A stretch of DNA of 64,000 bases from an uncultured Candidatus Saccharibacteria bacterium. Lineage in GTDB: Bacteria; Patescibacteriota; Saccharimonadia; Saccharimonadales; JAGQNJ01. The position numbers were made by a program, and so were the translations under genes. The notes beneath the pieces are model-generated. The model worked only from the letters and a program-made list of their open reading frames with translations, did not search any database and had not been told where the DNA came from. Shown piece after piece: positions 22,458 through 57,958 of this stretch. Where the stretch lies: positions 98,774 to 162,773 of the forward strand of contig CAZEED010000001.1 of the NCBI GenBank assembly GCA_964510945.1. Reading direction: 5' to 3'. Each line of letters opens with the position of its first letter. Position 1 is the stretch's first letter.

Positions 22458-22631
22458 TTTAGCATTTCCTACTACAATAAGCGCTTGACATAATTAAATT
22501 GTTATATAAACTATGATTCAAGAAGTAGGGTAAGCGGGCCTTGCTATGATTTATCAAAAAATTGTGTGAGCTACCCCTTAGAGATCTTCGTTCAAAATCA
22601 ATCTAACAGATTCAAGGAGAACTTGCTCTAT

Positions 22632-25600
22632 ATGGCAAAGTCGCTAACGCTCACGTCTGGTAAACGGCAATATTTCACAAAAACAGAAAACATCTTAGAT
22701 CTACCAAATTTAGTTGACCACCAAAACAAATCTTTTCAATGGTTCATCGAAGAAGGCCTCGGCGAATTACTAGCAGAAGTTAGTCCAATCGAAGACTACA
22801 CAGGCACAAAATTATCACTAAGCTTCAAAGACTATCGATTCGAAAAGCCAAAACTAACAGAACAAGAAGCTCGCGAGAATAACGTAAGTTTTGACGCGCC
22901 TCTTAAAGCGACAGTTGTTCTTACTAATAAAGTTACCGGTGAAGTTAAAAAACAAGAGATTTATCTTGGCGATTATCCATGTATGACCTCACGGGGAACT
23001 TTTGTGATTAATGGCGCAGAACGTGTTGTAGTAAGCCAGCTTATTAGATCAGCTGGCGTTTTCTTTACTAGCGAACAAAGCGCAGGGAAGAATTTGTACG
23101 GAGCCAAGGTTATTCCCGGACGAGGTGCGTGGCTAGAATTTGAGACATCCGCCAAAGGCGCAATGTTTGTAAAAATTGATCGAAAACGAAAAATTCCTGT
23201 TACTACACTGCTTAGAGCATTAGGTGTTTCTGATGCCAAGATGAAAGAAGAATTTGCTCATGTTGATCAAGGTAGTGAAAGTTACATTGACATGACTCTT
23301 GATAAAGATCCGGCTCGAGGCACAAATGAAGCCTTAATTGAAGTCTACAGACGTCTTCGACCAGGGGATCTTGCTACAGTTGATAACGCTCGTAGCTTGC
23401 TTGAAAACATGTTCTATAACTTTAAACGTTTTGATTTTAGTCGTGTCGGAAGATACAAAATCAACAAACGCTTAGATATCGATCTACCAAATACTATCGA
23501 AAACCGAGTGATGAGATTAGAAGACCTCATCGCAATTATTGCTGAAATTATTCGACTTAATAATACACAAGAACCGGCTGATGACATTGACTCGCTTGCA
23601 AATAGGCGAGTCAAATTAGTTGGAGAGCTTGTTCAGCGTCAGTTCCGTATCGGATTACTTCGAATGGAGAGAAACACTAAAGACCGAATGTCGATGAGTG
23701 AGATTGAGACAGTTACACCAGGTCAACTGATTAACGCACGTCCAGTTGTTGCTGCGGTTAGAGAATTCTTCGCTAGTTCGCAGTTATCTCAGTTTATGGA
23801 TCAGATTAACCCGTTGTCAGAGCTTGCACACAAAAGACGATTGAGCTCAATGGGCCCGGGTGGATTATCAAGAGAGCGAGCCGGCTTTGAGGTTAGAGAT
23901 GCGCACGCTACACACTATGGCCGTATTTGCGCGGTTGAAACACCTGAAGGTGCCAATATTGGTTTAGTGTTAAACATGGCAACTTATGCTCGAATTAATG
24001 ATTACGGATTTATTGAAACGCCTTATCGAAAAGTAACTAACGCTGTAACAGCCAAAAAAGCTGCCGGACACATTGCCGCAGTAAACCTAGAAAATGAAAA
24101 AGGCGCAGTAATCGTTAAAGCAGGTGAAAAAATCTCAGATGCTCAGGCTAAAAAACTCGAAGCCGTTAAAAAACAAGTTACTTGGCCGATAAAAGCCAAA
24201 GCAACCGATGAAATAATATATTTAGATGCCTTCGAAGAAGGAAAAGCCGTTATTGCCAGTGCTGGAGAAACAATTGATGACGACGGTTATTTCGTTAATG
24301 ATCGTGTTTCTGCTCGAATCCGACTAAAAACTGGTGAGATCGACGCTAACGAAGTTACTCATATGGATGCTTCTAGACGTCAGATCATTGGATCAAGTGC
24401 GGGATTGATTCCATTCATTGAGAAAAACTATGTTTATAGGAGTTTGATGGGAAGCAACCAGCAACGTCAAGCAGTACCGCTAATTAATCCACAATCTCCA
24501 ATTGTTGGAACTGGTCTAGAATCGACTGTAGCTGAAAATACTGGACAACTAATTGTTGCCGAGGAAAATGGAGAAATCATCAAAGCCGAAGCTGATGAAG
24601 TTGTAATTAAATACAATAAATTAGGTAAGAGAAGCTACTATCCACAACATTTTGTACGAAGTAACGAAGGAAGTTGTATTAATCAAAAGGTCGTGGTAAA
24701 TACTGGCGATAAAGTTAAAGCCGGTACACCGCTTATTGAGGGAATGTCTATTCAAGGTGGAGAGTTAGCGTTAGGAAAAGACCTAATCGTGGCATTTATG
24801 CCATGGAAAGGCTATAACTTTGAAGACGCTGTAATTATCTCTAGAAAACTTGTTGAAGATGATACTTTGACATCAATTCATATCGTCGACTTTATGACTG
24901 AAGTTAGAGAGACAAAACTTGGACCAGAAATCGTTACAAGAGATATTCCGAACGTCTCAGAAGAAGCATTAAGGCACCTTGATGATGACGGAATAGTGCG
25001 GATTGGTGCAGAAGTACATCCTGGGGATATTTTAGTAGGAAAGATTACACCAAAGGGTGAGCAAGAGCTGTCAAGCGAAGAACGACTTCTTCGAGCAATC
25101 TTTGGTGAAAAAGCTAAAGATGTTAGAGATACATCACAGCGCATGAGTAACGGTAAACACGGAAAAGTTGTTGGAGTCAAAGTATTCTCTAGAGAAAATG
25201 GTCATGAACTAAAAGCCGGTGTCATCATGCAGATTCAAGTCTTTGTGGCACAAATGCGCAAGATCGCTGTAGGTGATAAATTAGGTGGTCGACACGGTAA
25301 CAAGGGTGTAATCGCCCGAATACTTCCAGTTGAAGATATGCCATTTATGGAAGACGGAACGCCTGTAGACATCATCCTAAACCCTCTAGGTGTGCCGAGT
25401 CGTATGAACATTGGACAATTATTTGAGACTCACTTAGGTATGGCTGCGCACGCTTTAGGCTTTAAAGTTGCTACTCCACCATTTAATGGCGTGCCTCTAG
25501 AAAAGATCCGTAGCCTCCTTAAAGAAGCGGGACTTCCTGAAACAGGCAAACAACAGTTATATGATGGAAGAACTGGCGATAGATTTACAGAATTAACTAC

Positions 25601-26171
25601 TGTTGGTTCAATGTACATGATCAAACTAAATCACATGATTGTAGATAAAATCCATGCTCGTTCAACCGGACCATACACAATGGTTACACAACAACCTTTG
25701 GGTGGTAAAGCTCAGAATGGTGGTCAAAGATTTGGAGAAATGGAAGTATGGGCTTTAGAGGCTTACGGCGCCGCCCACACTCTACAAGAGATGCTAACTA
25801 TTAAGTCTGACGATGTTTACGGACGTTCAAAAGCTTACGAGTCAATTATTAAAGGAACAGAAATTGTTGGACCGAAGGTCCCTGAAAGCTTTAACGTTCT
25901 TGTTAAAGAACTTCAAGGACTAGGACTAAAAGTTGATCTGTTTACTAAAGAAAAAGCCATCGATGCTGAAGATATTCTGTCAGAAAATATCAAAACTGAA
26001 GGAAGTCATCCTTCTGATATAGATGTACCTCAGCCTGAAGCATCAGAAGTTGACGTTACAGAAGACGTAACAATAGATGAATTTGACGTAATGGATATCG
26101 ACAGTACGGCTCCGGAGAATGAAGTTACACTGGATGCACCTATCGACGGAAAGGAGATGGAAAATGCGTAG
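22632..26171 (+). CDS. rpoB: DNA-directed RNA polymerase subunit beta
   Basis: Full RpoB conserved blocks. ATG 22632 (MAKSLTL) with AAGGAGA RBS is preferred over the GTG at 22566. Acidic C-terminal tail. Confidence 0.92.
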   Translation: MAKSLTLTSGKRQYFTKTENILDLPNLVDHQNKSFQWFIEEGLGELLAEVSPIEDYTGTKLSLSFKDYRFEKPKLTEQEARENNVSFDAPLKATVVLTNKVTGEVKKQEIYLGDYPCMTSRGTFVINGAERVVVSQLIRSAGVFFTSEQSAGKNLYGAKVIPGRGAWLEFETSAKGAMFVKIDRKRKIPVTTLLRALGVSDAKMKEEFAHVDQGSESYIDMTLDKDPARGTNEALIEVYRRLRPGDLATVDNARSLLENMFYNFKRFDFSRVGRYKINKRLDIDLPNTIENRVMRLEDLIAIIAEIIRLNNTQEPADDIDSLANRRVKLVGELVQRQFRIGLLRMERNTKDRMSMSEIETVTPGQLINARPVVAAVREFFASSQLSQFMDQINPLSELAHKRRLSSMGPGGLSRERAGFEVRDAHATHYGRICAVETPEGANIGLVLNMATYARINDYGFIETPYRKVTNAVTAKKAAGHIAAVNLENEKGAVIVKAGEKISDAQAKKLEAVKKQVTWPIKAKATDEIIYLDAFEEGKAVIASAGETIDDDGYFVNDRVSARIRLKTGEIDANEVTHMDASRRQIIGSSAGLIPFIEKNYVYRSLMGSNQQRQAVPLINPQSPIVGTGLESTVAENTGQLIVAEENGEIIKAEADEVVIKYNKLGKRSYYPQHFVRSNEGSCINQKVVVNTGDKVKAGTPLIEGMSIQGGELALGKDLIVAFMPWKGYNFEDAVIISRKLVEDDTLTSIHIVDFMTEVRETKLGPEIVTRDIPNVSEEALRHLDDDGIVRIGAEVHPGDILVGKITPKGEQELSSEERLLRAIFGEKAKDVRDTSQRMSNGKHGKVVGVKVFSRENGHELKAGVIMQIQVFVAQMRKIAVGDKLGGRHGNKGVIARILPVEDMPFMEDGTPVDIILNPLGVPSRMNIGQLFETHLGMAAHALGFKVATPPFNGVPLEKIRSLLKEAGLPETGKQQLYDGRTGDRFTELTTVGSMYMIKLNHMIVDKIHARSTGPYTMVTQQPLGGKAQNGGQRFGEMEVWALEAYGAAHTLQEMLTIKSDDVYGRSKAYESIIKGTEIVGPKVPESFNVLVKELQGLGLKVDLFTKEKAIDAEDILSENIKTEGSHPSDIDVPQPEASEVDVTEDVTIDEFDVMDIDSTAPENEVTLDAPIDGKEMENA

Positions 26172-29100
26172 ATATTCACATGGACCTGACATAACAGATT
26201 TTGATGCAGTGAGACTTGCAGTTGCAAGTTCAGCTGATATTTCAGACTGGTCATACGGAGAGGTTACAAAACCAGAGACTATAAACTACCGAACTCAAAA
26301 ACCAGAACGAGATGGACTGTTTTGTGAAAGGATCTTTGGACCAGTTAAAGATATCAATCCACATGACGCTAAATATAAAGGCGTTAGATCAAGAGAAGCT
26401 GCAGTTGATAAAAAAGGTGAGATCGTTACTCGTAGTATTGTGCGACGTGAAAGAATGGGCCATATTCAACTTGCATCACCAGTTGCACATATTTGGTTCT
26501 TACGAGGCACACCATCAGCGATGGGGCTACTACTTGGCTTGACTGTAAAAAATCTTGAGCGTGTTGCCTACTTCGCTAGTTACATCATTAAAAAAGTCGA
26601 CGTTAAGAAGCGCGATCAACTACTAACTGATAGAGAAGCGCAGACTGATGCAGCAAAACAAGCTATTGACGCCAGATATGAGGCTGAAGCTAAAAAAGAC
26701 GATGCCAATATTAAAGCACTTGCCGAAATGCGTACTAAAGAGCTTGAAGAGTTGGTTAACGAGTTTAACGAGTTTAAAGAACAAATTGATATGTTAGTCG
26801 AATACGGCCTTATCAACGAAGGTGACTATCAAAACCTTCCGGATAATTTGAAAGAAATCATCGAAGTTGGTATGGGCGGTAACGCTTTGAAACAAATGCT
26901 AGACGAGATTGAACTTGAAGATCTAATTAAACAACTCAATGAAGAAGCTGAAGGCGCAAAAGGCCAACGTAAGAAAAAACTACTAAAACGTCTAAGATTA
27001 CTCGAGAGCATGAATAGAGCTGGTATAAAGCCTAACTCTATGTGTTTACAAGTTTTGCCAGTTATACCTCCAGACCTTCGTCCAATGGTTCAGTTGACTG
27101 GCGGTAGGTTTGCTACATCAGACCTAAACGATCTTTACAGACGTGTTATCAACCGAAATAATCGATTGAAAAAACTAATTGACCTAAATGCTCCAGAAGT
27201 TATTTGCCGTAACGAGCAGAGAATGCTTCAAGAAGCTGTCGACGCACTAATTGATAACGGCAATGCCCGCTCTGGACGTGCAGTAGCAGCATCCGGTCAA
27301 CGACGACGCCTAAAGTCACTTAGCGATATGCTTAAGGGTAAACAAGGACGTTTCCGTCAAAACTTGCTTGGTAAACGTGTAGATTATTCTGGTCGTTCAG
27401 TCATTGTATCTGGACCAGAGCTTAAGATTGACCAATGTGGACTGCCGAAGATGATGGCTCTAGAATTGTTCAAACCATTTGTAATAGGGTCGTTAATAGA
27501 AAACGATTACGCGCACAACATTAGAAGTGCGACAAGAATGATTGAGCTAGGCGAAACACCAGTTTGGGATGCACTAGATGAGGTTATTAAAGAAAAATAT
27601 GTATTGCTAAACCGTGCTCCAAGTCTTCACAGATTAAGTATCCAGTCGTTTAAGCCGATTCTTATTGAAGGTAAAGCTATTCAGCTTCACCCACTAGTTT
27701 GTAGAGGTTTTAACGCTGACTTCGATGGAGACCAAATGGCTGTACATTTGCCGTTATCTGATGCTTCACAAAAAGAAGCTAAAGAAATAATGGCTGCAAA
27801 TAAAAACCTATTGAAGCCAGCAGATGGTTCACCGATACTACACATAGAACAAGATATTGTGCTTGGATGTTACTACTTGACATATATAAAGCCAGGTAGC
27901 GAGACTAAACCAAGAGCCTTTAAATCCCTAGAAGAAGCGATGATGGCTTATGATTGCGAGTATATCAAGCTTCAATCCGCTGTACGTGTTCCATTTAGAG
28001 GTAAAGTACAAGAAACTACATTAGGTAGACTACTCTTCAACGAGATCTTCCCAGAGGATTTTGAATTTCACAATACTACAATGACCAAAAAACTTTTAGG
28101 ACAGGTTATGTCTGAAGTTTACGAGAAGTATGGTCAAGACGTAACTGCTGAAATTGCAGATGACTTAAAAGATATTGGATTCGAATATGCGACAGTTTCT
28201 GGTCTGTCTCTCGGAATCTCAGATTTTAGCGATATTGTTGGGCTAGATAAGAAACTAAGTGAAGGTGAAACAAAATCTGCAGATATTAGCACACAATACA
28301 ATGAAGGGTTCATTACAGATGATGAGCGCTATAGACTAACTGTGAATAACTGGAAAACAATTGATTCTGACATTCAAGAAATGCTAACCAAACAATTTAC
28401 ACAAGAAGACAGTGCCATGGCTACAGCTGTGACATCTGGAGCTAGAGGTAATATTGGACAGGTTAAAACTGCTGTTGGAATGCTTGGAATTACTCAGGAT
28501 ACTACTGGACGAGCTATTGAGCTTCCAATTAGATCTAGCTACAAAAAAGGTCTAAATCCATTGGAATACTTTACCGCGACACGTGGTGCTCGAAAGCAAA
28601 TGATTGATACAGCCCTAAAAACCGCTGACTCAGGATATTTGACTCGACGTTTAGTAGACGTGAGTCAAGATGTATTTACCGATGATGAAGAGGCGCCAGA
28701 TCCTGGCTTCCCAGTTTATAGGTCTGATTCGATTGAAATTGGCGTAACCCTTGGTTCTCGACTTGAAGGCCGATTTGCGGCTGAGACAGTCAAGCCACAT
28801 ATTAAAAAGGGTGAACTGATAACTAGAGCCATTGCTGAGATGATCGATAAAGACTTGAGTATTGAATCAGTTAAGATTATGAGCGTTCTAAGTTGTAGTA
28901 GCCCTCGCGGTATTAGCCGAAAATCTTATGGTATTGACCCAGCTACTGGTAACCTTGTCAGTGCGTACTATCCTGTTGGGGTAGTAGCAGCGCAAAGTAT
29001 TGGTGAACCGGGTACACAGTTGACTCTAAGAAGTTATCACGCTGGTGGACAATCGGTTGAAGATATAACAACTGGTCTGCCGCGTGTTGAAGAACTTTTC

Positions 29101-29976
29101 GAGACTCGCACACCAAAAGGACAGGCTGTATTGTCTGAGCTTGCCGGTACAGTTAATGTTTGGGAAGAGGGCGAAAAATATATTGTCCAAGTAACTTCAG
29201 ACGACAAATCGCGAGTCGATCTAGACCTTAATGATAGAATTGCCAAGATTGAATCTAATACTGAAGTTGGTGTTGGAGATGTAATCGCAATCGGGCCAAA
29301 TGATTCTGACCCACTTGTCGCGCCAGTTGCCGGAAAAGCATCTGTAACTAAGAAAAAGATTAGTATTAGCCCTGTAAGCGAACAGGTTGTGAAATACGAA
29401 ATACCTGGAAATAAGCCAGTTGTAGTCAAAGATGGCGACACTGTAGTAGCCGGACAACGACTAACTGGTGGATCGATTAGCCTACACGAGTTAATGGCAT
29501 TACAGGGCATAGAGGCAACTCAACGCTACATCATGAATGAAATCCTTCAGATCTTTGTATCGCAAGGGCAGAATATTGCTAACAAACACCTTGAAGTAAT
29601 TGTTAGACAAATGTTCTCCAGAGTACAGATAGATGATGCAGGTGATAGTGAATACGTAACAGGTGATATCGTCAGTAAAGTTGATGTGTTAGAGAAGAAC
29701 GAAGAACTAGCTAAGAACAAAAAACAGCTCGTTCAGTACAGTCAATTACTGCTGGGAATCACTAAAGCCTCACTATCAACAGAATCATTCTTGTCAGCCG
29801 CTAGTTTCCAGGATACTACTAGAGTACTTATAGCAGCAGCGACAAGTGGAAAAGTTGATTACCTAAGAGGGCTAAAAGAAAACGTAATCTTGGGACGCAT
29901 GATTCCAGTAGGAACAGGCTACAATGCCTACGACAAAAAAGATGCTACCCCCGTTGACGAAGAAGATGAAAAGTGA
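26164..29976 (+). CDS. rpoC: DNA-directed RNA polymerase subunit beta'
   Basis: RpoC conserved blocks including NADFDGD. ATG 26164 with AAGGAG RBS, overlapping the rpoB stop by 8 nt. Confidence 0.92.
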
Positions 29977-30407: not shown

Positions 30408-30884
30408 ATGCCAAGGAAAAAGACCAAAGAACTAATTCGAAAAATTCCTGGTGATCGCTTATACGACAGCGTCATGGTACAACGCGTAATTAATCGTGTA
30501 ATGCTAGATGGTAAAAAACAAGTTGCTGAACGTTTGGTCTATGGTGGTATGCAGGATGCTGCCGACAAACTTAAAGTTAAAAATCCTCTAGAAGTCTTTG
30601 ATAAAGCGCTTGGTAATATCCGTCCAAGTGTAGAGACTAGGTCTAGACGAGTTGGTGGAGCTAACTATCAGATACCATTTGAAGTTAAAGGCCAGAGACA
30701 ATCTCACCTTACAATTATGTGGTTTGTTGAAGCAGCACGTGCACGATCAGGCATGAGCATGAAAGATCGAATCGCCCAAGAGCTTATGGATGCGTATAAC
30801 GAATCCGGTTCAGCAGTTAAAAAACGCGAAGATATGCACAAAATGGCAGAAGCCAACCGTGCCTTCGCTCACTTCGCGAGATAG
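30408..30884 (+). CDS. rpsG: 30S ribosomal protein S7
   Basis: S7 family sequence. Confidence 0.95.
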   Translation: MPRKKTKELIRKIPGDRLYDSVMVQRVINRVMLDGKKQVAERLVYGGMQDAADKLKVKNPLEVFDKALGNIRPSVETRSRRVGGANYQIPFEVKGQRQSHLTIMWFVEAARARSGMSMKDRIAQELMDAYNESGSAVKKREDMHKMAEANRAFAHFAR

Positions 30885-30888
30885 CAGA

Positions 30889-31092
30889 ATGATTTCTGAA
30901 ACTGTCGGACGGTTTAAAAGAAACGTGGCTGATCAATTAGTCCAGCACGAAGATAGGCTAAGAACTTCGTTTGAAGATCAGGAAAATAATATCCGCCTAA
31001 ACTTTGAAGTTGCAGGTTTAAGCGTTGTCCATGCTTTAGCAAGTTTAGCAGTAACAACAGTTGAAATATTAACACCTAGGAGTACAGAATAA
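30889..31092 (+). CDS. Hypothetical small ORF (67 aa) filling the rpsG-fusA gap
   Basis: Starts 5 nt after the rpsG stop. Its stop is immediately adjacent to the fusA ATG. No strong SD. Could be noncoding. Confidence 0.25.
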   Translation: MISETVGRFKRNVADQLVQHEDRLRTSFEDQENNIRLNFEVAGLSVVHALASLAVTTVEILTPRSTE

Positions 31093-33180
31093 ATGGCGGA
31101 CAAAAAATCAGATCTAAAAAATTATAGAAATATCGGTATTATAGCGCATATTGATGCTGGTAAAACTACAACAACAGAGGGTATTCTTTACCGTACTGGC
31201 TTAAAGCACAAAATTGGTGCAGTTCACGAAGGTGAAACGACCACCGACTGGATGGAACAAGAACGCGAACGCGGTATCACCATCACATCTGCCGCGGTTA
31301 CCTGTTTCTGGAAAGATCACAAGATCAACATCATAGACACACCTGGGCACATTGACTTCACCGCCGAAGTTGAACGTAGCCTAAGAGTACTAGATGGTGC
31401 TGTAACAGTATTTGACGGCAAAATGGGTGTCGAGAGTCAATCAGAGACAGTATGGCGTCAAGCGAACAAATATAATGTCCCTCGGATCTGTTTTATTAAC
31501 AAAATTAACCAAACAGGTGGCGATTTCTACAAATCACTTGATACTATTCACGCAAGGTTAACAAAACGTGCTTTTCCGATACATCTACCATTAGGTTTCG
31601 AACAGTCGATTAATGGAATCATTGATCTGATTAGTATGAAAGCATACACCTATAAAGAGTTTACTGATCACGAATTAGTCGAATCAGACATCCCAGAGAA
31701 TATGGCAGATCAGGTAAAGAAGTACCGAAGTCTATTGGTCGAAAACGCAGTAGCCGAAGATGAAAAAATCCTAGAAAAATTCTTCGAAGTTGGAGAAGAT
31801 GGATTATCAGAGGATGAAATAAGGCAAGCCGTCCGAACAGCAACACTTACCAGTGATTTCTTCCCTGTAACGGGTGGTGATGGTCGCGGGGTGATTGTAG
31901 AGAAAGTCCTTGATGCAGTTAATGACTTTTTACCAAGCCCACTAGATCGTGGCTCTGTCTGGGGCACACATCCTAAGAGTGGCGATGAGATTGAAAGAAA
32001 ACCTTCAGAGTCTGAGCCAATGTCAGCTTTAGCGTTTAAAATTGCAACTGATCCTTTTGTAGGTAAATTATGCTTTGTAAGAGTATATTCAGGTAAGTTG
32101 CAGGCAGGATCATATGTCTATAACAGCTCTACAGGCGAAAAAGAACGTGTTGGACGCGTTGTACGTATGCAAGCCGATAAACGAGAAGACATTACAGAGA
32201 TTAGCGCTGGTGACATAGCTGCGATAGTAGGCCTAAAAGGTACTACGACTGGTAATACCCTATGTGACGTAAATAACACAGTTGTACTCGAGAATATTAC
32301 TTTCCCTGATCCACCGGTATCGATTGCCATTGAGCCAAAAACTAAAGCCGATCAAGAAAAGATGGGTATTGCTTTGCAAAGACTAGCCGAAGAAGATCCA
32401 ACCTTCCAAGTAAAGGTTGATCACGAGACAGGGCAAACAATTATTAAAGGGATGGGTGAATTGCACCTCGAAATCATTGTCGATCGAATGAAAAGAGAAT
32501 TTGCTGTTGAGGCTAACATTGGTCAACCGCAAGTTGCTTATCGCGAGACAATCCGAAAAGATGGTGTTGAAGTACAAGGCAAATTTATCCGACAATCAGG
32601 TGGACGAGGTCAATATGGTGACGTTTGGCTGCGACTTTCGCAAAATGAACAAGGTAAGGGCTTTGAATTCATCAACAAAATTAAGGGTGGTGTGATTCCT
32701 GCAGAATATATTAAGCCAGTTGAAGAGGGAATCAAAGAAGCCATGAGCAATGGAGTACTCGCTGGATATCCAGTCGTAGACATCGTTGCCGAACTTTATG
32801 ATGGTAGCTATCATGACGTGGACTCTAGTGAAATGGCCTTTAAAGTTGCAGGATCTATGGCATTACAAGCGGGTGTTAAACAAGCTGCGCCAGTATTACT
32901 AGAGCCAGTGATGAAAGTAGTAGTTGTTACACCTGAAGAGTTTATGGGTGAAGTTATTGGTGACCTTAATAGTAAACGTGGTCGTATCGAGTCTATGGAA
33001 GATCTAACAGCCGGTATTAAAGAAATTACAGCCTTTGTACCACTCGGAGAAATGTTTGGCTACACTACTAATCTACGTAGCAATACACAAGGTCGCGCTA
33101 GCTCAAGCATGGAGCTGGATCACTACGCTGATGTTCCAAGCCACGTAGCCGAAGCAATCATCGCCAAAAACAGTAAATAA
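31093..33180 (+). CDS. fusA: Elongation factor G
   Basis: GTPase motifs ([18 protein letters not shown]). EF-G domains II-V. Confidence 0.95.
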
Positions 33181-33241
33181 CATATTCATATAAATATATA
33201 GAAAAATCTCAAAGAATTAAATTTCAACACCTAGACAAATG

Positions 33242-34048
33242 CTATTTATTTATATTCGTTCCGTCTCCGAATAATTTACCAGAATTAAAATCAGCGCGCA
33301 TCCCCGTATAATCGCCAGTAGGTAACTGTATACTCCTAACCCTTATTGCAGCAATATCTATAGGATCTCCCATGACCGCTACATACATTCTCGCTTTTAC
33401 TTGTCTATTGACTGGGGTGCCATAGTCATCAGTGTCATATATGTACTCGTTAAAGCCGTAGCAACCTATTCTACGTGCAGTCTTATTACTTTCTTGTCGA
33501 TGGTCATAACTACTATTACTAGTTGTATACCATGATCTTGTTCCTTCTCTGTATAAACGAATGCTAACATGCGTATTCCAACTTTTTGCTTTCCAGCAAA
33601 GCTGTACTGCCATCGGACGATTACGAGTGTTTTCGGGCTTTGGAATGATAAAAGACTTTGATATATAGGTCATTCTTGGCGTATATAGACTAGTTCTAGA
33701 TCTCCAACCATTTATTTTACGCCCTTTAGAATTAGTGGATACTTTGATCTTGTGGCCAACAGACCTCCAATTTACTTGCGGAATACTAGTATCATACTGA
33801 TCTTCATTATTATTTTCTGCTGCTGCGTCGTCGTAGTTGAGTACTTTAATAGGTTTTTTCTCTACTATATCCCCAGCCGGATATGTTTTGCTGTAACCCT
33901 TCGATTGCGCGTCTGAATTTCTGATGTTGAATAAATCATTTTTGTATGCGAATACCCCTAAAGCTAACACTAAACCAATCAATAGCGACATAACTAATAT
34001 TGGTTGAAATCTACGATTTGTAGTTTTAGTTTTATTATTTGACTTCAT
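33242..34048 (-). CDS. Paralog A of an unknown secreted/membrane-anchored protein family (268 aa)
   Basis: Basic N-terminus plus single TM anchor. Conserved GWR, (M/L)A(V/L)xxCW(K/R), (H/Y)R(Y/Q)E, I(G/A)CYGF blocks shared with the two upstream paralogs. Confidence 0.7.
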   Translation of the reverse strand: MKSNNKTKTTNRRFQPILVMSLLIGLVLALGVFAYKNDLFNIRNSDAQSKGYSKTYPAGDIVEKKPIKVLNYDDAAAENNNEDQYDTSIPQVNWRSVGHKIKVSTNSKGRKINGWRSRTSLYTPRMTYISKSFIIPKPENTRNRPMAVQLCWKAKSWNTHVSIRLYREGTRSWYTTSNSSYDHRQESNKTARRIGCYGFNEYIYDTDDYGTPVNRQVKARMYVAVMGDPIDIAAIRVRSIQLPTGDYTGMRADFNSGKLFGDGTNINK

Positions 34049-34080
34049 ATGTTTAGTCTCATTTCAATTATTTAATATAA

Positions 34081-34881
34081 TTATCTTGTGATGTCCGTTT
34101 CGAATTGTCTCAGGTAATATCCATTACTGTCGTGTTCTTGTGGTTTTGTTGGTTCAAAGATTTTAATAGATGCCAGTTCAATGCCACCTTCAGGTACTTT
34201 AATGAAGAGTTTTGCTTTTATGGATTTTTTTATTCTTACCGCGTATTGTCCTCGATGTATTGGCTCACTCTGCGGATGTGATCTAGGTACGACAGATTTA
34301 TAGCCAACATCATAAAAACCCCAGCAAGCAATTTCGCGATACCGATTAGGATCGCTTTCATATCGATGGGTGAAATTTATATGATATGCTCCATCCTTGG
34401 TCCCCCACACTTTATTGATATCTCTACTCAAACGTAGTTTTATGGTTGTATTCTTTTCTAGAGCTCGCCAGCAAACATACACAGCCATTGGACGTTTTGA
34501 TGTAGGAATGGTAAACCATTTACTGAAGTAGACCCATCCTTCGTTATCTAGAGTGTGTTTTTCATCGGCGTGATTCATCCTCCAACCATCAATCATAGGG
34601 CCACCTGGTTTAGCGGGCATACGAATATTCCCGCCTTGAGATTTAACCGATACTAACTTACCTCTGTAATACTTGAATGGTGTGGGTTTGTAATTAACTA
34701 TTTTTCCCGCAGCATAGGTTTTATTATATCGTTTAGAATCCGCCGACGAATCTTTTAGATTCAGCAAATCCATACTAAAAATAACAAGTCCAATTACGAA
34801 TATTAATATAATTGAAAAAGTTATAATTTTTGATTTATTTGATAATTTAAGATCCTTATTTTTCTTTTTTTTGTTTGCCAT
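34081..34881 (-). CDS. Paralog B of the same family (266 aa)
   Basis: MANKKKKNK..signal-anchor..IRMPAKPGGPMIDGWR..MAVYVCWR..IACWGFYD. AAGGA RBS. A8 tract in codons 3-6. Confidence 0.7.
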   Translation of the reverse strand: MANKKKKNKDLKLSNKSKIITFSIILIFVIGLVIFSMDLLNLKDSSADSKRYNKTYAAGKIVNYKPTPFKYYRGKLVSVKSQGGNIRMPAKPGGPMIDGWRMNHADEKHTLDNEGWVYFSKWFTIPTSKRPMAVYVCWRALEKNTTIKLRLSRDINKVWGTKDGAYHINFTHRYESDPNRYREIACWGFYDVGYKSVVPRSHPQSEPIHRGQYAVRIKKSIKAKLFIKVPEGGIELASIKIFEPTKPQEHDSNGYYLRQFETDITR

Positions 34882-34912
34882 ATTTGTCCTTAGCTACATT
34901 TATTAGTTATCT

Positions 34913-35842
34913 TTAATTGGTGATGTCAGATTCAAACTGTCTATCGTAATAATTTGCACCGAGTTTAGATCTTTCAGGCGGTTGTGTTGGGTGAAAAACT
35001 TTTATTGAAGCAATTTCTACTTGGCCACGAACCTTTATATTAATTCTAGCCTTAATGGATTTGGATTTATTCATTTTTTTCATGTATTGCCCTGGATATA
35101 TTGGCTCGTTTTGCGGATGTGATCTAGGCACGACACGTTCATAGGCGATATCGTAAAAACCCCAACATTTTATTTTTTGCCACTCATCGTCACCATGTTC
35201 ATAACGATGTATATAGTTCATTATAGGCGCGCCATTTTTGTCTGACCATAATTCTCGTCTATTCTTGTTACTGAGCGTAGGACCTGCGAATAGAAGTTTT
35301 AATGATGTTTCTTTGCCGGACAATGATCTCCAGCAGACATATAAAGCTAGCGGTTTATCACTCTTGTCTTTTGGGATATTTATTTCTTTTGAAAAATAAG
35401 ACCAGTCAGGTAAATATGTAGTAAGTCTAGGGTTTACAGCTTTTTTATTGGGTTTTAACTTTTTAAAAAGTTTATCGTAGGTTGATGAGTTAACTAATGG
35501 CGATCGCCATCCCTTAATCATAGGACCTCCTGGTTTGGCAGGCATTCTTATGTTCTTTCCTAAAGATTTCATCATTACAAAATCATCGTCGCCGTATATT
35601 CCGCTATCTTTACGAACTTTTGTTTTGCCGTAGTTAACGATTTCGCCGGCTGGGTAAGTTCTATTGTAATTCTTAGAATCTGCAGATGAGTCTCTTAGAT
35701 TCAGCAAATCCATACTATAAATTAATAATGCAAGTACAATTACTAATAAAATTGAAAAAGTTATAATTTTTGTTTTATTTGATAATTTAAGATTCTTATT
35801 TTTCTTTTTTTGTTTGGCATTTTCTCTCCTATACTTAAGCAT
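34913..35842 (-). CDS. Paralog C of the same family (~309 aa from ATG 35842; track TTG at 35869)
   Basis: About 45% identity to paralog B overall, but near-identical DNA over the first ~60 codons and upstream region. Has an A7 tract where paralog B has A8. Confidence 0.65.
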   Translation of the reverse strand: MLKYRRENAKQKKKNKNLKLSNKTKIITFSILLVIVLALLIYSMDLLNLRDSSADSKNYNRTYPAGEIVNYGKTKVRKDSGIYGDDDFVMMKSLGKNIRMPAKPGGPMIKGWRSPLVNSSTYDKLFKKLKPNKKAVNPRLTTYLPDWSYFSKEINIPKDKSDKPLALYVCWRSLSGKETSLKLLFAGPTLSNKNRRELWSDKNGAPIMNYIHRYEHGDDEWQKIKCWGFYDIAYERVVPRSHPQNEPIYPGQYMKKMNKSKSIKARINIKVRGQVEIASIKVFHPTQPPERSKLGANYYDRQFESDITN

Positions 35843-36034
35843 TATACATAACACACTAATTGATTCCAATTTCTTATTTTATGTACTCTATTAACTATAA
35901 TTAAGAGTTAAAAGAATAATCCAAAAATGATTCTTTACTTGTATGCGTATTTTCGCTATTATATTCAGGTATCTCGCGTGAGTATTATATACTTATGCTA
36001 AATAATTAAGTAATTAACAGGAGTAACAACTAAA

Positions 36035-37216
36035 ATGGCAGATTTTGATCGAAGTAAACCACACGTAAACGTTGGAACAATGGGGCACGTTGACCATGGT
36101 AAAACAACACTAACAGCAGCAATTACAGCTGTACTAGCTAAAAAGCTTCCTAGCGACGTTAACAAACCAGTTAAATACGACGAAATTGACAAAGCACCAG
36201 AAGAAAAAGCACGTGGTATAACAATTGCGACATCTCACCAAGAATACGAGAGTAAAAAACGACACTACGCACACGTTGATATGCCAGGTCACGCTGACTA
36301 CGTCAAGAACATGATTACAGGTGCCGCACAGATTGACGGAGCGATTCTAGTAGTATCAGCTGCAGATGGCCCTATGCCTCAAACACGAGAACACGTACTA
36401 CTCGCAAAACAGGTCGGCGTTCCATCGATACTTGTATTCATGAACAAGATGGACCTTGCAGATCCAGAACTAGTTGAACTAGTAGAAATGGACATTCGTG
36501 AACTACTCGGCAAATACGAATTCGACGAGAACGCTCCAATTATTAAAGGTTCTGCAACTAAAGCTCTTGAAGGTAGTGCCGCAGATGAAGATGCCGTTAT
36601 GGAACTTGTCGACAAGATGGACGAATATGTTCCAGAACCAAAACGAGACCTTGATAAAGACTTCTTGATGGCTATTGAAGACGTTTTCTCAATTAAAGGA
36701 CGCGGAACTGTAGCAACCGGTCGTATTGAACAAGGAGTTGTTAAGGTAAACGAAGAAGTTGAAATTGTCGGTATCCATGATACAAAAAAGACTGTTGTTA
36801 CAGGTGTAGAGATGTTTAAAAAGAATCTAGATCAAGGTCAGGCTGGAGATAACGTCGGAATCTTACTTCGAGGTATCGAACGTGATGATATCGAACGTGG
36901 TCAAGTTTTGGCTAAACCCGGTTCAATTACGCCTCACACAGAATTTGACGCAGAAGTATACGTGCTAACAAAAGAAGAGGGTGGACGACACACCCCATTC
37001 TTTAAAGGTTACAAACCTCAATTCTACTTCCGAACAACGGACGTTACAGGTGAGGTAGAACTACCGGCTGATAAAGAAATGGTCATGCCTGGTGATACAG
37101 TAACTTTCAAGGTTAAATTGATCCAACCGATTGCTATGGATCAAGGTCAACGATTCGCCATCCGTGAAGGTGGACGAACAGTTGGCGCCGGTGTTGTAAC
37201 AAAAATTACAAAATAA
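36035..37216 (+). CDS. tuf: Elongation factor Tu
   Basis: [21 protein letters not shown] motifs. Full-length EF-Tu. Confidence 0.97.
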
Positions 37217-37280: not shown

Positions 37281-37402
37281 TATTTATCATTTTGTTATAC
37301 AATACAGTAACAAACTAATCGTAATGACTAAAAGTCGTTGTATATGATCTATTTATCATTGCAAAGATGTTACATTACACCCATAAAGAAAGGTATTTTT
37401 AT

Positions 37403-37789
37403 ATGGCTGAAGCCGATAAGACACAACCAACAAAAAAGCCAGCAGCAAAGTCTGCTGATCTAAAAGAAAAGGCCGTAGCTTCTACGAGTCAAAGGATTCG
37501 GATCCGATTAAAGGCTTATGATCATAAAGTAATTGATCAGGCTACAAAACAAATTGTCGATACTGCAATTCGTACAGGTGCTAATATTGCAGGACCAATC
37601 CCACTGCCAACAAGAAGAACCGTCTATACAGTCGTAAAAAGTCCGCATGTCTTTAAAAAAGGCCGAGAGCAGTTCGAGATGCGTACGCACAAACGACTCA
37701 TTGACGTATTAGAACCAACCCCTAAGACAATTGACTCGTTAATGAACCTAAGTCTGCCCGCTGGTTGCGATGCAGAAATTAAAATGTAG
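37403..37789 (+). CDS. rpsJ: 30S ribosomal protein S10 with ~30 aa Lys/Ala-rich N-terminal extension
   Basis: Core [20 protein letters not shown] 37403 with AAAGAAAGG RBS. Confidence 0.9.
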
Positions 37790-38013: not shown

Positions 38014-38277
38014 ATGGCAAAAAAACAAAAACGTATAAGAGAAACAGACGATGCATATTTCTTAAAACTAGTATTATTCATGATCTTGGGATCAATGTGG
38101 TTAAAAGTCAGTGATGGTCAATCTTGGCAAATTCCGTTACCCATAGGACTAGTTTTCGGAATACTACTGGCGAGACATGACCATTTTAGGATAGATCGTA
38201 AAATAGAATATGCTGTGCTACTAATTGCAGCGTTTGTGGGTTTTTGGGCGCCAATAGGGATTTATATTAATCTGTAA
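38014..38277 (+). CDS. Hypothetical small membrane protein (87 aa, 2 TM) inserted between rpsJ and rplC
   Basis: Two hydrophobic helices. Weak RBS. Confidence 0.4.
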   Translation: MAKKQKRIRETDDAYFLKLVLFMILGSMWLKVSDGQSWQIPLPIGLVFGILLARHDHFRIDRKIEYAVLLIAAFVGFWAPIGIYINL

Positions 38278-54025: not shown

Positions 54026-56200
54026 TTGAACGACGGGGGTTGGTTTGGCTCGCCTGAAATTGCAGCCATACGCTTAAGAGGATATCCGTACGAGCAAGTT
54101 ATCGACGGAGAACCTCACGACAGTACAGATACTTTAAATGGCTTTGCACGTAACGAGAGCTATGAAAACAATCTTGCCCTAAAGCTAGCTGAGCACGAAC
54201 CAGACCTAGAACCACTGCGAGAACTCGGATTTCATGGACTAGATGCCAAGGTGAAAAGCCCTGGTGCCCTAACCTATGAAGAGGCTTTTAGCCTAGCGAC
54301 CTTCGTATGCCTAACAAGCAACAGAGAGCTACACAAGGCTTTTGAGCCTGAGCTAGCAGGTATTGGTGAGCCGGAAACTTTGCGTCTTCAGGCGGTTTCA
54401 TTGCTTCAAGGCATGTCAACTCGTGAGAGCCTGATCGGTTTTGAACCACAGGAAATTGCTGGAATGGTAGCCGCTACTTTAGAGCTAGATACCGTGGCTC
54501 GAGTAGCATCCCCTAGCGAAACCCCGACATTCATTGTTGGCGGTATGGGCGGTGATAGGGGTATACCCTCTCACGGGGAGCAGTCAAAACTATTTAGTAC
54601 CTCTACGCTTGCTTCAATAGCATTGGCTGGACTCGTGGCTGTTCATAAGCATCACTCTTACCCCAATACATCCAAAGCAGCTGGCCAATCAGCTATAGAA
54701 GCTTTGGGCGCAAGATCCGATATGGAGGATGCCGCAACTATGGAACTGGCACTAGGCATATCTGGAATGCTTATGACGAGTTGTCATAGCGTAAGAACCC
54801 TGCACACCATATCCCATATTCTTAAGGGAGAAACAGTCAATCACGCTATCGGGCCTTTGGCGGTTCCGCATGCCAGCAGCGATAAAGTTAACGCTCTAGT
54901 TGGCGTGAACCATAATGTTCACCCGACAACAATCATTGAAACCTTGCGTGTACTACAGACTAAAGGTATCCAAGACTACGGTAATAGCGTAGCGTTTTGT
55001 GGAGTTACTGCTCCGGTTGAAGAGCTCCCTGCTGAGATCTTAGACCCTAAAGCTTACTATGCTGCTCCTGATCTAAAGGAGTTAATCATGCTGGATGAAG
55101 TAGCGCCACCACCATTTGTAACGATGGCATCATTCTTAGTTGATGGCCAATCAAGTGGACCGTATTTAATCGAACCAATTGACTTCATGGAAGCCGAAGA
55201 GGCAGAAGCTATGTCATCAGATGGATTGCTGATTCCAAATACCCTGGAAGACATCATGACAGCCAATAATGCGGTCATCCAGGCCCAGGATCATATGAAG
55301 ACAAAGTACGTGGCGATGACCGTTGCTTTGGCCAACTTCGCGAGAGATTATGCGCATCTGCCTGACGCACTTGATGTGGATGCTCGTACTGTGAACAGAG
55401 CCTATCTTCGAGCATGTTTTAGAGCTGCTGTAGAAAATATGAGCGATGGGTCTATGGAGAACACAACAAGACTCTACGGCGAAGCAACGCAGAAAGACAT
55501 GCTTCCAAACATAGATGTGGTGGTCTTGGATATCGATAACACCTTGATTCGCCCTAAAAACCAAGACTTCTACGAACAATACTCAGAAGCTGTAAACTTG
55601 GCCATTGCTAACTATCTTGGCGTTAACCTAGAAGAAGCTACAAAAGTTGCGGACTTTTTCAGGGAAAACTTTGGTGGTGGCGAACAAGCCTTGTTTTCAG
55701 GAGCTGTTGGGGATTACTTTCCACAATACGGGAATCCTAGCCCTGACTTCGAGCTGCTTTACGATGCTATGTCCCAGATCAAGATTGATGGTCAATTTGG
55801 TGATGATGGCTTGAGTGCCAAGCTAGTTAAATTACTACGAGCCAAAGGCAAGAAAGTTGTAGCTATGACCGATTCGCCTGAAAGTCTATCGAGGCAGACA
55901 CTAAAAGCATGCGGCTTCGACCCAGATTCTGATTTTGACCTGTACGTTCCCTACACCAAAGAATCCGGTCCCCCGAAAATCGTGCAGGCCGATGAGGCTT
56001 TCAAGAGCATCGCTGACTATTTCGAGGTAGATCCTAATAGAGTGCTGAGTGTGGGTGATAGTCTAACAAGAGATATTGTACCAGCAGAAAGGTCTGGTAT
56101 GAAAACGTGCCTTGTCTCTCAGTACGATGTGCCTGGATACGAAGGCCTACAAGTAACTAATCTTGCGGATACATTCCGCACATATAGGAGAAGTTTATGA
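54026..56200 (+). CDS. Fusion protein: glycosyltransferase family 3 (TrpD-like phosphoribosyltransferase/nucleoside phosphorylase fold) N-terminal and middle part + HAD-superfamily hydrolase C-terminal part
   Basis: TrpD-like blocks (GGMGGD, VHKHHSYPNTSKAAGQSAIEALG, NHAIGPL, MLDEVAPP). HAD motifs I (LDIDNTL) and IV (VGDSLTRD). Likely true start is ATG 53980 (AAGGAG RBS) joined by a +1 shift at the G5 run 54035-54039. Confidence 0.7.
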   Translation: MNDGGWFGSPEIAAIRLRGYPYEQVIDGEPHDSTDTLNGFARNESYENNLALKLAEHEPDLEPLRELGFHGLDAKVKSPGALTYEEAFSLATFVCLTSNRELHKAFEPELAGIGEPETLRLQAVSLLQGMSTRESLIGFEPQEIAGMVAATLELDTVARVASPSETPTFIVGGMGGDRGIPSHGEQSKLFSTSTLASIALAGLVAVHKHHSYPNTSKAAGQSAIEALGARSDMEDAATMELALGISGMLMTSCHSVRTLHTISHILKGETVNHAIGPLAVPHASSDKVNALVGVNHNVHPTTIIETLRVLQTKGIQDYGNSVAFCGVTAPVEELPAEILDPKAYYAAPDLKELIMLDEVAPPPFVTMASFLVDGQSSGPYLIEPIDFMEAEEAEAMSSDGLLIPNTLEDIMTANNAVIQAQDHMKTKYVAMTVALANFARDYAHLPDALDVDARTVNRAYLRACFRAAVENMSDGSMENTTRLYGEATQKDMLPNIDVVVLDIDNTLIRPKNQDFYEQYSEAVNLAIANYLGVNLEEATKVADFFRENFGGGEQALFSGAVGDYFPQYGNPSPDFELLYDAMSQIKIDGQFGDDGLSAKLVKLLRAKGKKVVAMTDSPESLSRQTLKACGFDPDSDFDLYVPYTKESGPPKIVQADEAFKSIADYFEVDPNRVLSVGDSLTRDIVPAERSGMKTCLVSQYDVPGYEGLQVTNLADTFRTYRRSL

Positions 56201-57060
56201 GTAACCCAGAAATTATCTATGAAGTTGGCGAAGGTAACCCTATCGTCGTCATCAACACAGGAACACATGGCAACGAATATCAACCAGTAGAAGCAGCTAA
56301 TCAGTTTGCGGAAAATTTTGACGGATCCGAGTTAGTAACGGGGACAGTAAGACTTATTGTCTCAAACCCCCCTGCCTTGGAGCAGAATAAAAGATTCTTA
56401 GACGAAGACTTAAATAGAGCTTTTCCTGGTGATCCATCTTCCCCAAGTCGAGAGGCAAGATTAGCCTCTCAAGTACTTGGGTTAGTTGATGATGCGGATT
56501 TTGTAGTTGATCTGCACACTGCTCCAGACGGACCACCTTTTACAATTTTGGGCTCAAGGGATAGATCAAGACTTGATCTTGCTGAGCTTGCGCCGGTTCA
56601 GGATATTGTTCTATTTGAAGCTACTGAACCATGCGCAATGGTTGATTTTACTAAGTGTGGTATAGGCATTGAGATAGGAGCTCACACGGACGAACAGTCA
56701 ACGCAAGAAGGGGTTTCAATTATCGAAGCATACCTCGAGCGATTAGGCCTAACTCCTTCGACCCTAACAGGTGGCCGTAAATACGCTTACTCAAGACGAG
56801 GCTTAGGCGATCTGTTCCCACATCAATACCATGAAGTATTTTCGCGCTTAACCAGAGCAGACATACCCGAAGATGCTATAGCACAACTCAAGAATCTTGA
56901 GCCAATAGATAGTGCAACACTGGGTTTGAACCTAGAGGAGCCCGTTGTTCATCCTGTGCTATGTGGCGACAAAGATTACTCTCCCGTCTTCTGCTACTTA
57001 GCTAAACCGGTGGATAGAGAAAGTCTGGGAGGAAGGAAACGATACAATGCTTATTTTTGA
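56197..57060 (+). CDS. Succinylglutamate desuccinylase/aspartoacylase (AstE/AspA) family zinc amidohydrolase
   Basis: Family hallmark GTHGNE near the N-terminus. Downstream DLH..P motif. ATGA overlap with the upstream gene. Confidence 0.72.
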   Translation: MSNPEIIYEVGEGNPIVVINTGTHGNEYQPVEAANQFAENFDGSELVTGTVRLIVSNPPALEQNKRFLDEDLNRAFPGDPSSPSREARLASQVLGLVDDADFVVDLHTAPDGPPFTILGSRDRSRLDLAELAPVQDIVLFEATEPCAMVDFTKCGIGIEIGAHTDEQSTQEGVSIIEAYLERLGLTPSTLTGGRKYAYSRRGLGDLFPHQYHEVFSRLTRADIPEDAIAQLKNLEPIDSATLGLNLEEPVVHPVLCGDKDYSPVFCYLAKPVDRESLGGRKRYNAYF

Positions 57061-57958
57061 TACTGACGCTGGGCATGACGATGTCTTAGCGATGCTGATG
57101 TTACTCAAGTCCAAACAGTTCGATGTGTTGGGCATAACTACGGTTGCCGGTAATTCAACGCTTGAAAATGCTACCCGTAATACCGCGTTTGCGCTTGATC
57201 TGTTAGGAAGACGCGATATTCCTATTTTTTCAGGCGCAGCTAAACCTCTCAAGAGACAGCTCGTCCAAGCGGTTGTTCACGGACATAGTGGTCTTGATGG
57301 TGCCGATACATCTAGAACTAGCTATACACTCACCAATAATGCTGTCAATAAGCTTATCGAGCTAGTTCGAGCTCACCCTTACGAAGTAACAATCCTGACA
57401 CTGGGGCCACTAACCAATATTGCAAAAGCATTCGAGGCTGACCCAGATCTTCCGACGCTTGTTAAGGGACTGGTCATTATGGGCGGTGTTGTTGATGGCG
57501 TTGGTAACAAAAACCGTGTCGCCGAGTTCAATATATTCGTTGACCCAGAAGCTGCCCATATCGTGTTTAGTGCAAATGTGAAAAAAACGCTCATTCCGTT
57601 TGATATATGTAGAGACATTGTTTTCCCGCTGAAAGACTTCGACAAGCTCAAAGGAACAAGCCTGCATAAGCCTGTTAAGAAAATGATGAAACCATTCATA
57701 TCTGGACTTAAGGCCGAAGAGGGAATCAACGGGGCGCTATTGCCTGATCCTATAGCAGCCTACTACCTATTAAACCCAAGAGTCTACACTATAAAACCAA
57801 TGGATATAGTCGTCGAAACATCTGGTAAGCATACTTCAGGAATGACAGTCATTGAAAAAAGAAAGAACAAACCACAAAAATATAATATAGAAGTAGCAAC
57901 AAGAATTATCGAAAATAAATTTAAACAACATTTCTTTAAGCTACTGAGGAAAGCCTAG
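57047..57958 (+). CDS. Inosine-uridine preferring nucleoside hydrolase family protein
   Basis: N-terminal DTDAGHDD aspartate cluster typical of IU-NH. Overlaps the previous gene by 14 nt. Confidence 0.8.
   Translation: MLIFDTDAGHDDVLAMLMLLKSKQFDVLGITTVAGNSTLENATRNTAFALDLLGRRDIPIFSGAAKPLKRQLVQAVVHGHSGLDGADTSRTSYTLTNNAVNKLIELVRAHPYEVTILTLGPLTNIAKAFEADPDLPTLVKGLVIMGGVVDGVGNKNRVAEFNIFVDPEAAHIVFSANVKKTLIPFDICRDIVFPLKDFDKLKGTSLHKPVKKMMKPFISGLKAEEGINGALLPDPIAAYYLLNPRVYTIKPMDIVVETSGKHTSGMTVIEKRKNKPQKYNIEVATRIIENKFKQHFFKLLRKA

Follow-up and report, generated by a model that had tools for sequence, protein, structure and literature searches.

An antisense array of three paralogous, predicted exported jelly-roll proteins at the fusA-tuf junction of uncultured Saccharibacteria

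RESULTS AND DISCUSSION

Three paralogous genes fill the interval between fusA and tuf

A 64,000-nucleotide stretch from an uncultured Candidatus Saccharibacteria bacterium (contig CAZEED010000001.1, positions 98,774 to 162,773; here called the window) carries rpoB, rpoC, rpsL, rpsG and fusA in that order on its plus strand and, farther along, tuf, rpsJ and the S10/spc genes. The open reading frame (ORF) list of the window shows that the interval between fusA and tuf, both on the plus strand, is filled by a trio of minus-strand genes, and the 2.85 kb that separate the two elongation factor genes are occupied by this antisense array. We call its members paralogs A, B and C, counting from fusA, and refer to loci in other genomes by L numbers and to proteins by P numbers. 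The core of the locus reads as follows.

31093 to 33180, plus strand: fusA (elongation factor G, EF-G), the left flank; its protein is identical to P0024, which has EF-G Pfam domains
33242 to 34048, minus strand: paralog A, 268 amino acids (aa); adjoins fusA and is the final gene of the array; Lys/Arg-rich N terminus
34081 to 34881, minus strand: paralog B, 266 aa; the middle gene; starts ATG GCA AAC followed by a run of eight A's (A8), with an AAGGA Shine-Dalgarno sequence upstream
34913 to 35842, minus strand: paralog C, 309 aa from the ATG at 35842; B-like N terminus
36035 to 37216, plus strand: tuf (elongation factor Tu), the right flank; GTP_EFTU, D2 and D3 domains in its orthologs

The ORF of paralog C reaches farther upstream, to a TTG at 35869 (318 aa), and the gaps between the array genes are 31 to 32 nt. 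A sequence-only reading of the window had described three tandem paralogs antisense between fusA and tuf, sharing conserved blocks and two conserved cysteines, and both descriptions were borne out. Paralogy is beyond chance (BLASTP E=7e-30 for A against B and 2e-87 for C against B), and the alignment of the three proteins shows all of the GWR, P(M/L)A(V/L)x(V/L)CW(R/K), HR(Y/Q)E and IxC(W/Y)GF blocks. Two cysteines, C137 and C186 in B numbering, are invariant in 27/27 collected family members, and 20 positions are nearly invariant over the same 27, among them A47, Y52, Y56, G99-W100, Y118, K121, C137-W138 and C186-x-G188. A hidden Markov model of the family run over the window found no copy beyond A, B and C. 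The GC content of the insert is 0.33 to 0.38, compared with about 0.41 to 0.42 in the flanking genes.

The proteins carry export signals with a possible cleavage site

Each paralog has 5 to 8 Lys or Arg residues among its first 25 and exactly one hydrophobic segment (mean Kyte-Doolittle value of 2.6 to 2.9 over 19 residues), with a helix at residues 15 to 43 in the AlphaFold model of B. Past the hydrophobic segment, every member has an (S/A)-x-A motif followed by xSKxYxKxYxAG; A47 is invariant in 26/26 members, with S or A at -3, and the motif lies about 12 residues beyond the hydrophobic core. Paralog A illustrates the arrangement: a hydrophobic segment at residues 17 to 35, an SDA-QSK motif and then a predicted beta-jelly-roll ectodomain. 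The (S/A)-x-A motif looks like a signal peptidase I site, which makes secretion after cleavage no less plausible than a signal anchor. Thus, of the proposal that these are signal-anchored proteins, the basic N terminus and the single hydrophobic segment stand, with a cleavable signal peptide an equally likely outcome given the invariant motif.

We rejected the possibility of a bacterial lipoprotein, since the signal peptides do not end in a lipobox Cys: no Cys precedes residue 151 in A or residue 137 in B, and in paralog C the sole early Cys lies ahead of the basic region, at position 8 when the protein is read from the TTG. Neither an LPXTG-type motif nor a second hydrophobic segment was seen in the three proteins.

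The predicted ectodomain is a beta-jelly-roll resembling carbohydrate-binding modules

There was no usable match to the family in Pfam, NCBIfam, PHROGs, PADLOC or PDB sequence profiles, with Pfam run first on single proteins and then, at E<=10, on all 19 members. The hits obtained were rejected, being chance similarities within the hydrophobic segment and one spurious match to Parp14. The earlier statement that no known domain could be recognized therefore holds for sequence-level annotation but not for the fold. An AlphaFold2 model of B (mean pLDDT of 75, with 85 to 90 in the core) has an N-terminal helix and then a domain of about 12 beta-strands, and a separate AlphaFold model of A (pLDDT of 66) has the same strand pattern. 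Both models match beta-jelly-rolls of the type found in carbohydrate-binding module (CBM) families CBM6, CBM35 and CBM36 (e.g., PDB 1uxz, 3zm8, 7ay3, 1ux7 and 7zvo), with other jelly-rolls ranked next and close behind: Cry-toxin domain III, ephrin-receptor ligand-binding domains, laminin and phloem lectin. The Foldseek matches to PDB have weak E-values (>=5e-4) and are spread over mixed jelly-roll classes. At the level of these models, the beta-jelly-roll (galactose-binding-domain-like) fold class is established; membership in a CAZy CBM family is not.

Our leading explanation, in which belief and doubt are about evenly balanced, is that the array is an operon for CBM-like beta-jelly-roll proteins that stand alone, are exported by Sec and bind an envelope glycan, the paralogs differing in a specificity borne by the loops. 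We imagine that C, B and A would be cotranscribed, in that order, as a single minus-strand unit starting at a conserved -10-like box (described below) in the 192-bp spacer that the array shares divergently with tuf. Each product of about 30 kDa would be exported by the Sec pathway by means of its Lys-rich region and single hydrophobic helix, and would then either remain as an N-in/C-out membrane anchor or be set free when signal peptidase I cuts at the (S/A)-x-A motif. The exported portion would be a single CBM6/35/36-type beta-jelly-roll with a Cys pair, possibly a disulfide, and the invariant W100, Y118 and W138. From the fold alone, we infer that the proteins would act as stand-alone, lectin-like binders of a cell envelope glycan, belonging either to the Saccharibacterium itself or to the bacterium on which it lives; a role with the host would be a further step of the same kind.

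The paralogs probably differ in ligand, because they differ mainly in predicted loops. Their length differences map to predicted loops or to low-confidence regions: paralog C is longer by about 20 residues just past GWR, where the B model has a predicted loop (strands 96 to 103 and 119 to 125 on either side), a VVPRSHPQxEPI loop is missing from A, and an NNED-rich insert is specific to A.

The beta-jelly-roll fold, predicted here, is what the array family and CBM6/CBM35/CBM36 have in common; the differences are considerable. No sequence or profile similarity between the two was detected. At about 200 residues, the array ectodomain is the larger of the two, and it has additional N-terminal strands and loops as well as the conserved Cys pair. 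Each array protein is one domain behind a signal/anchor segment, with no glycoside hydrolase, lyase or esterase attached, and the gene neighbors are fusA and tuf.

Several observations weigh against glycan binding by CBM-like proteins. The CBM families of Pfam recover none of the 19 members, even at E<=10, and the family profile, run against PDB sequences, found no solved carbohydrate-binding module. Sequence identity to all of the structural matches is 4 to 13%. CBM6/35/36 modules are usually joined to enzymes, whereas the array proteins are solitary. The YbaK-like, NUDIX and ROK neighbors of the most distant family members suggest no function. An alternative that we consider distinctly less probable than a lectin, though it has a real claim, is that the ectodomain is a protein-binding beta-sandwich, or one with a structural role in the envelope, such as a cell wall or S-layer component or an adhesin for a host surface protein.

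The genes are under purifying selection and evolve as mosaics

For A and B orthologs from four other lineages, dN/dS is 0.07 to 0.20, with dS near or at saturation, compared with 0.002 to 0.056 for fusA, tuf and rpsG in the same comparison; nonsynonymous change in the array genes is 5 to 10 times faster than in their neighbors. Given these ratios, the array genes are functional and under purifying selection, and gene-wide positive (diversifying) selection was rejected. The family had been called diversifying from the sequence; this is right in the sense of fast nonsynonymous change and mosaic evolution and wrong in the sense of positive selection.

The mosaic pattern lies in the two parts of the protein. 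The first 64 residues (basic region, hydrophobic segment and SxA/SKxY motif) track the genome lineage, and the ectodomain tracks the paralog type. Across these N-terminal 64 residues, B and C are 75 to 90% identical: 75% for C and B of the window, with 51% over the rest, and 90% for P0012 (type C) and P0002 (type B, L010 lineage), with 52% over the rest, if the latter two come from one genome, as assumed. Conversely, P0013 and P0016, which are both type C (the type-C orthologs are P0012 to P0016), are 39% identical over residues 1 to 64 and 91% identical over the rest. The simplest reading of this pattern would be gene conversion at the 5' ends of adjacent copies; lineage-to-lineage swapping of ectodomain cassettes would also fit.

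Expression signals and a frameshift at the start of paralog C

The signals found at the two ends of the array and at the starts of B and C are as follows.

35841 to 35869, minus strand: array promoter-like site, TTGGAA, 17 nt, TATAAT; sigma-70-like, 10/12 matches (promoter scan)
35818 to 35830, minus strand: Shine-Dalgarno sequence (AGGAG, 35830 to 35826) and ATG (35820 to 35818) of paralog C; the ancestral start, opening a frame of only 19 codons
35805 to 35811, minus strand: A7 tract of paralog C, codons 4 to 6; one base short of the A8 in paralog B and in L020
34865 to 34872, minus strand: A8 tract of paralog B, encoding the Lys-rich n-region
33181 to 33241, no strand: convergence spacer between fusA and paralog A, 61 bp, AT-rich; weak fold of -7.5 kcal/mol, z = -1.46

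The -10 box and the 11 bases that follow it (TATAATGCTTAAGTATA) are conserved ahead of the first family gene in the window, L020, L001, L010 and L009, and the remainder of the spacer between the array and tuf is not alignable among those relatives. The box is a putative promoter element. At the other end, a terminator scan and folding found no canonical intrinsic terminator in the spacer at 33181 to 33241; with none between paralog A and the 3' end of fusA, convergent readthrough is possible.

Paralogs B and C both start ATG-xCA-AAC followed by a run of A's, and the start context of C is AGGAG-N5-ATG CCA AAC and then A7. The seven-base tract is found in the window and in four further assemblies of the same strain (L004 to L007), with the same length in all five consensus assemblies, which come from four samples; the close strain L020 has A8 and the corresponding ATG in frame, and P0013 begins MPNKKKK from the ATG equivalent to 35820. 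With A7 in place of A8, reading from the Shine-Dalgarno-linked ATG at 35820 no longer leads into the long ORF, whose frame is shared only by the ATG at 35842 and the TTG at 35869. The ATG at 35842 is the ATG within the conserved TATAATG. If transcription starts downstream of TATAATG, paralog C would go untranslated in this strain, unless there is slippage. The frameshift may act as a phase-variation switch, mark an early pseudogene or reflect an unusual start.

Phase-variable surface protein families with homopolymer tracts are known as contingency loci, and one can envision the array as such a locus, with switchable surface binders that use slippage at 5' poly(A) tracts and gene conversion to tune host attachment or evade host defenses. 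The array has in common with phase-variable, gene-converting families the tandem exported paralogs, a 5' homopolymer that differs by one base between strains and mosaic relations among copies. Consistent with such a locus, the A7-to-A8 difference shifts the frame of the Shine-Dalgarno-linked ATG and leaves the ORF otherwise intact, the sole in-frame upstream ATG sits within the conserved -10-like box, N-terminal parts group by lineage and ectodomains by paralog type, and copy number is 2 or 3 among genomes. However, only two alleles were seen, with a tract length that is constant in the five assemblies, and seven or eight A's are short for efficient slippage, a point in which the array also differs from the known families. 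Lys-rich signal peptides of an AT-rich genome yield A-runs anyway. The transcription start is itself inferred, so that the ATG at 35842 may serve as a start codon, and the overall dN/dS indicates purifying selection. We therefore regard a contingency locus as unlikely. It elaborates, rather than opposes, the glycan-binding explanation: in its full form, a recombining, switchable, lectin-like cassette, located beside the tuf promoter where two highly expressed transcription units meet, would set which host cell wall glycans are bound, with single paralogs switched on or off and gene conversion reshuffling the ectodomains behind a leader specific to the lineage, and this version, too, we think improbable.

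The family is narrow, patchy and recurrent at one site

Fifteen clusters of the family came up when 5.8 billion proteins were searched by word index, and only 10, at 50% identity, in an exhaustive profile search covering 1.84 billion representatives; these 10 all come from environmental metagenome-assembled genomes (MAGs) or contigs. The named genomes with the family are all uncultured Candidatus Saccharibacteria MAGs; a scan of GTDB species representatives found 2 species that carry it, and a scan of JGI metagenomes yielded one locus, a duplicate of L010. The family is undescribed and extremely narrow, occurring in only a few uncultured genomes, with a fold and a presumed role that are familiar.

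Arrays are found at the fusA-tuf junction in at least five other lineages. In all of the following, they converge on fusA and diverge from tuf.

L001 (700-kb contig): two copies (B, A)
L002 (286-kb MAG contig): two copies (B, A)
L009 and L010: two copies (B, A)
L004 to L007 (window strain): three copies
L015: three copies, more diverged

P0020 and P0021, the members most distant from the rest, lie in tandem among YbaK-like, DUF5680, NUDIX and ROK genes, and since this is a different neighborhood, the family is older than its residence between fusA and tuf.

EF-G is 85 to 90% identical over well over a hundred Saccharibacteria clusters. Within this range, three relatives as close as the carriers of the array (contigs of 0.78 to 0.84 Mb, EF-G 87 to 90% identical) all lack the family (3/3); their fusA-tuf spacers are 330 to 450 bp long and hold unrelated ORFs of 60, 80 and 98 aa, and no family remnants were found in these spacers. 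A tree of S12, S7 and EF-G does not recover the genomes with the family as monophyletic: L010 pairs with L017, which lacks it, and a split between genomes with and without the family is recovered in 2/200 bootstraps. The presence of the family is therefore patchy, which may reflect repeated loss or repeated gain.

Two further features were found on the tuf side of the spacer.

35934 to 35962, plus strand: tuf promoter-like site, TTTACT, 17 nt, TATTAT; directed away from the array (promoter scan)
35976 to 35998, plus strand: tuf leader hairpin, nine predicted pairs, two of which keep pairing after changes on both sides (weak support)

In an alignment of the region upstream of tuf, a box of TTTAC, about 17 nt and TAnnAT is conserved in 7/7 genomes, with or without the family. 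Because this box is kept irrespective of the array and the spacer content is variable, the fusA-tuf junction in this lineage is most likely a transcription unit boundary and a permissive slot, judging from sequence conservation. This removes much of the surprise of the location and would explain how the array is tolerated there. The site is unusual for bacteria generally and variable in this lineage. An interruption of a highly conserved junction, as first proposed, is thus correct as to the antisense array itself; the junction is never tight in this lineage, with recurring arrays in some relatives and unrelated small ORFs in others.

The 5' leader of tuf (window 35968 to 36000, plus strand; GGTATCTCGCGTGAG...CTTATGC) is conserved in seven Saccharibacteria genomes, with the core GTAaCTCGyGyGAG. 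Rfam has no match in the region, the leader included. This leader may be a regulatory or processing element for the tuf mRNA.

The low GC content of the insert, its patchy presence among close relatives and the lack of monophyly of its carriers are what would be expected if the array were mobile-element or prophage cargo, such as a receptor-binding or toxin module that landed in the spacer and has no role in the envelope of its own cell. Weak structural matches to Cry-toxin domain III and to phage depolymerase/tailspike and viral capsid jelly-rolls point the same way. However, there is no integrase, transposase, repeat or tRNA at the site, and the other chromosomal context of the distant members is also without mobile genes. 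In the tree of A-type proteins, as in that of the flanking genes, the window falls with L001 and L002 and L010 falls with L009, and the saturated synonymous sites between orthologs at the same position argue for long vertical residence. Prophage cargo in particular was rejected, as there is no PHROG or PADLOC match, and cargo of any kind seems to us very improbable.

Spurious ORFs, or pseudogenes decaying in a noncoding spacer, are scarcely credible: the 5' frameshift of paralog C relative to its ancestral start would fit, but full-length ORFs of all three types are kept across synonymous-saturated lineages at a dN/dS of 0.07 to 0.20 (which effectively refutes spurious ORFs for A and B), twenty positions are nearly invariant in 27 members, and the fold predictions are confident.

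Other junctions of the str and S10 operons

The order rpsL-rpsG-fusA...tuf-rpsJ of the canonical str operon, on a single strand (Brandis et al. 2019, PMC6735719), is kept in the window. In contrast to the rpsL-rpsG-fusA-tufA arrangement of Enterobacteria, fusA is not directly followed by tuf in the lineage of the window, and lineage-specific extra ORFs also lie in the rpsG-fusA and rpsJ-rplC junctions.

A 67-aa ORF at 30889 to 31092 (plus strand; within the ORF at 30790 to 31092) occupies the rpsG-fusA junction and ends one base before the fusA start codon. It has no Pfam match and is conserved only in the closest relative, L002 (L002:10407-10610, minus strand). In each of the other genomes examined, this place is taken by an unrelated ORF of its own, 83 to 135 aa long; the junction resembles a second variable slot of the str operon.

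Between rpsJ and rplC, in the S10 operon, lies an 87-aa predicted membrane protein (window 38014 to 38277, plus strand) with no Pfam family; its motif YFLKLVLF...HDHFxIDRKIEYAVLL is strongly conserved in all of the relatives checked (L001, L010, L017 and L018). The L010 lineage has a HAD hydrolase between rpsJ and rplC, another lineage-specific str/S10 insertion, and a 283-aa protein without a Pfam match antisense between tuf and rpsJ (L010:3569-4420, plus strand; L021:1524-2375). The rpsJ (S10) ORF of the window (37367 to 37789, plus strand) is 140 aa as listed, with a Lys/Ala-rich N-terminal extension of about 40 residues ahead of the usual beginning of the protein, and S10 is also long in relatives (119 to 142 aa).

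In this lineage, the supposedly rigid rpsG-fusA-tuf-rpsJ junctions are thus variable slots, each genome having its own small genes there, which is useful to know when gene order or markers from this region are used in Patescibacteria.

Two observations concern other parts of the window. The region at 54026 to 57958 (plus strand) has a GC content of 0.45 to 0.48, compared with about 0.40 elsewhere, and encodes a 724-aa protein with a C-terminal HAD-hydrolase domain, an AstE/AspA-like deacylase and an inosine-uridine nucleoside hydrolase; it may be a laterally acquired nucleoside salvage block. The rpoB ORF (22566 to 26171) and the rpoC ORF (26119 to 29976) overlap by 53 nt as listed (26119 to 26171), and the true rpoC start is probably a downstream codon.

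Implications for Saccharibacteria

Cultivated Saccharibacteria live attached to host bacteria. Several of their essential envelope proteins have polysaccharide-binding domains, for which host glycan targets have been speculated by the authors of that work (PMC10633639). The proposed glycan binding by the array proteins agrees with this picture. These proteins of Southlakia epibionticum, namely, SEML1_0891 (VCBS), SEML1_0890 (FN3) and SEML1_0315 (dockerin) (Wang et al. 2023, PMC10633639), come from the same phylum as the array and resemble its products, as predicted here, in being envelope associated and in having domains of a glycan-binding type; they differ in that the domains are other ones, with no homology to the array family. 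The exhaustive profile search did not find the array family in cultivated oral Saccharibacteria. The array is not a categorically new system, and the function that we propose for it rests on similarity of predicted folds.

Host recognition by Saccharibacteria is poorly understood beyond type IV pili and a few adhesins. With three proteins of about 30 kDa and a predicted lectin-like fold, the array between fusA and tuf is a compact candidate for a system of host or envelope interaction in environmental Saccharibacteria.

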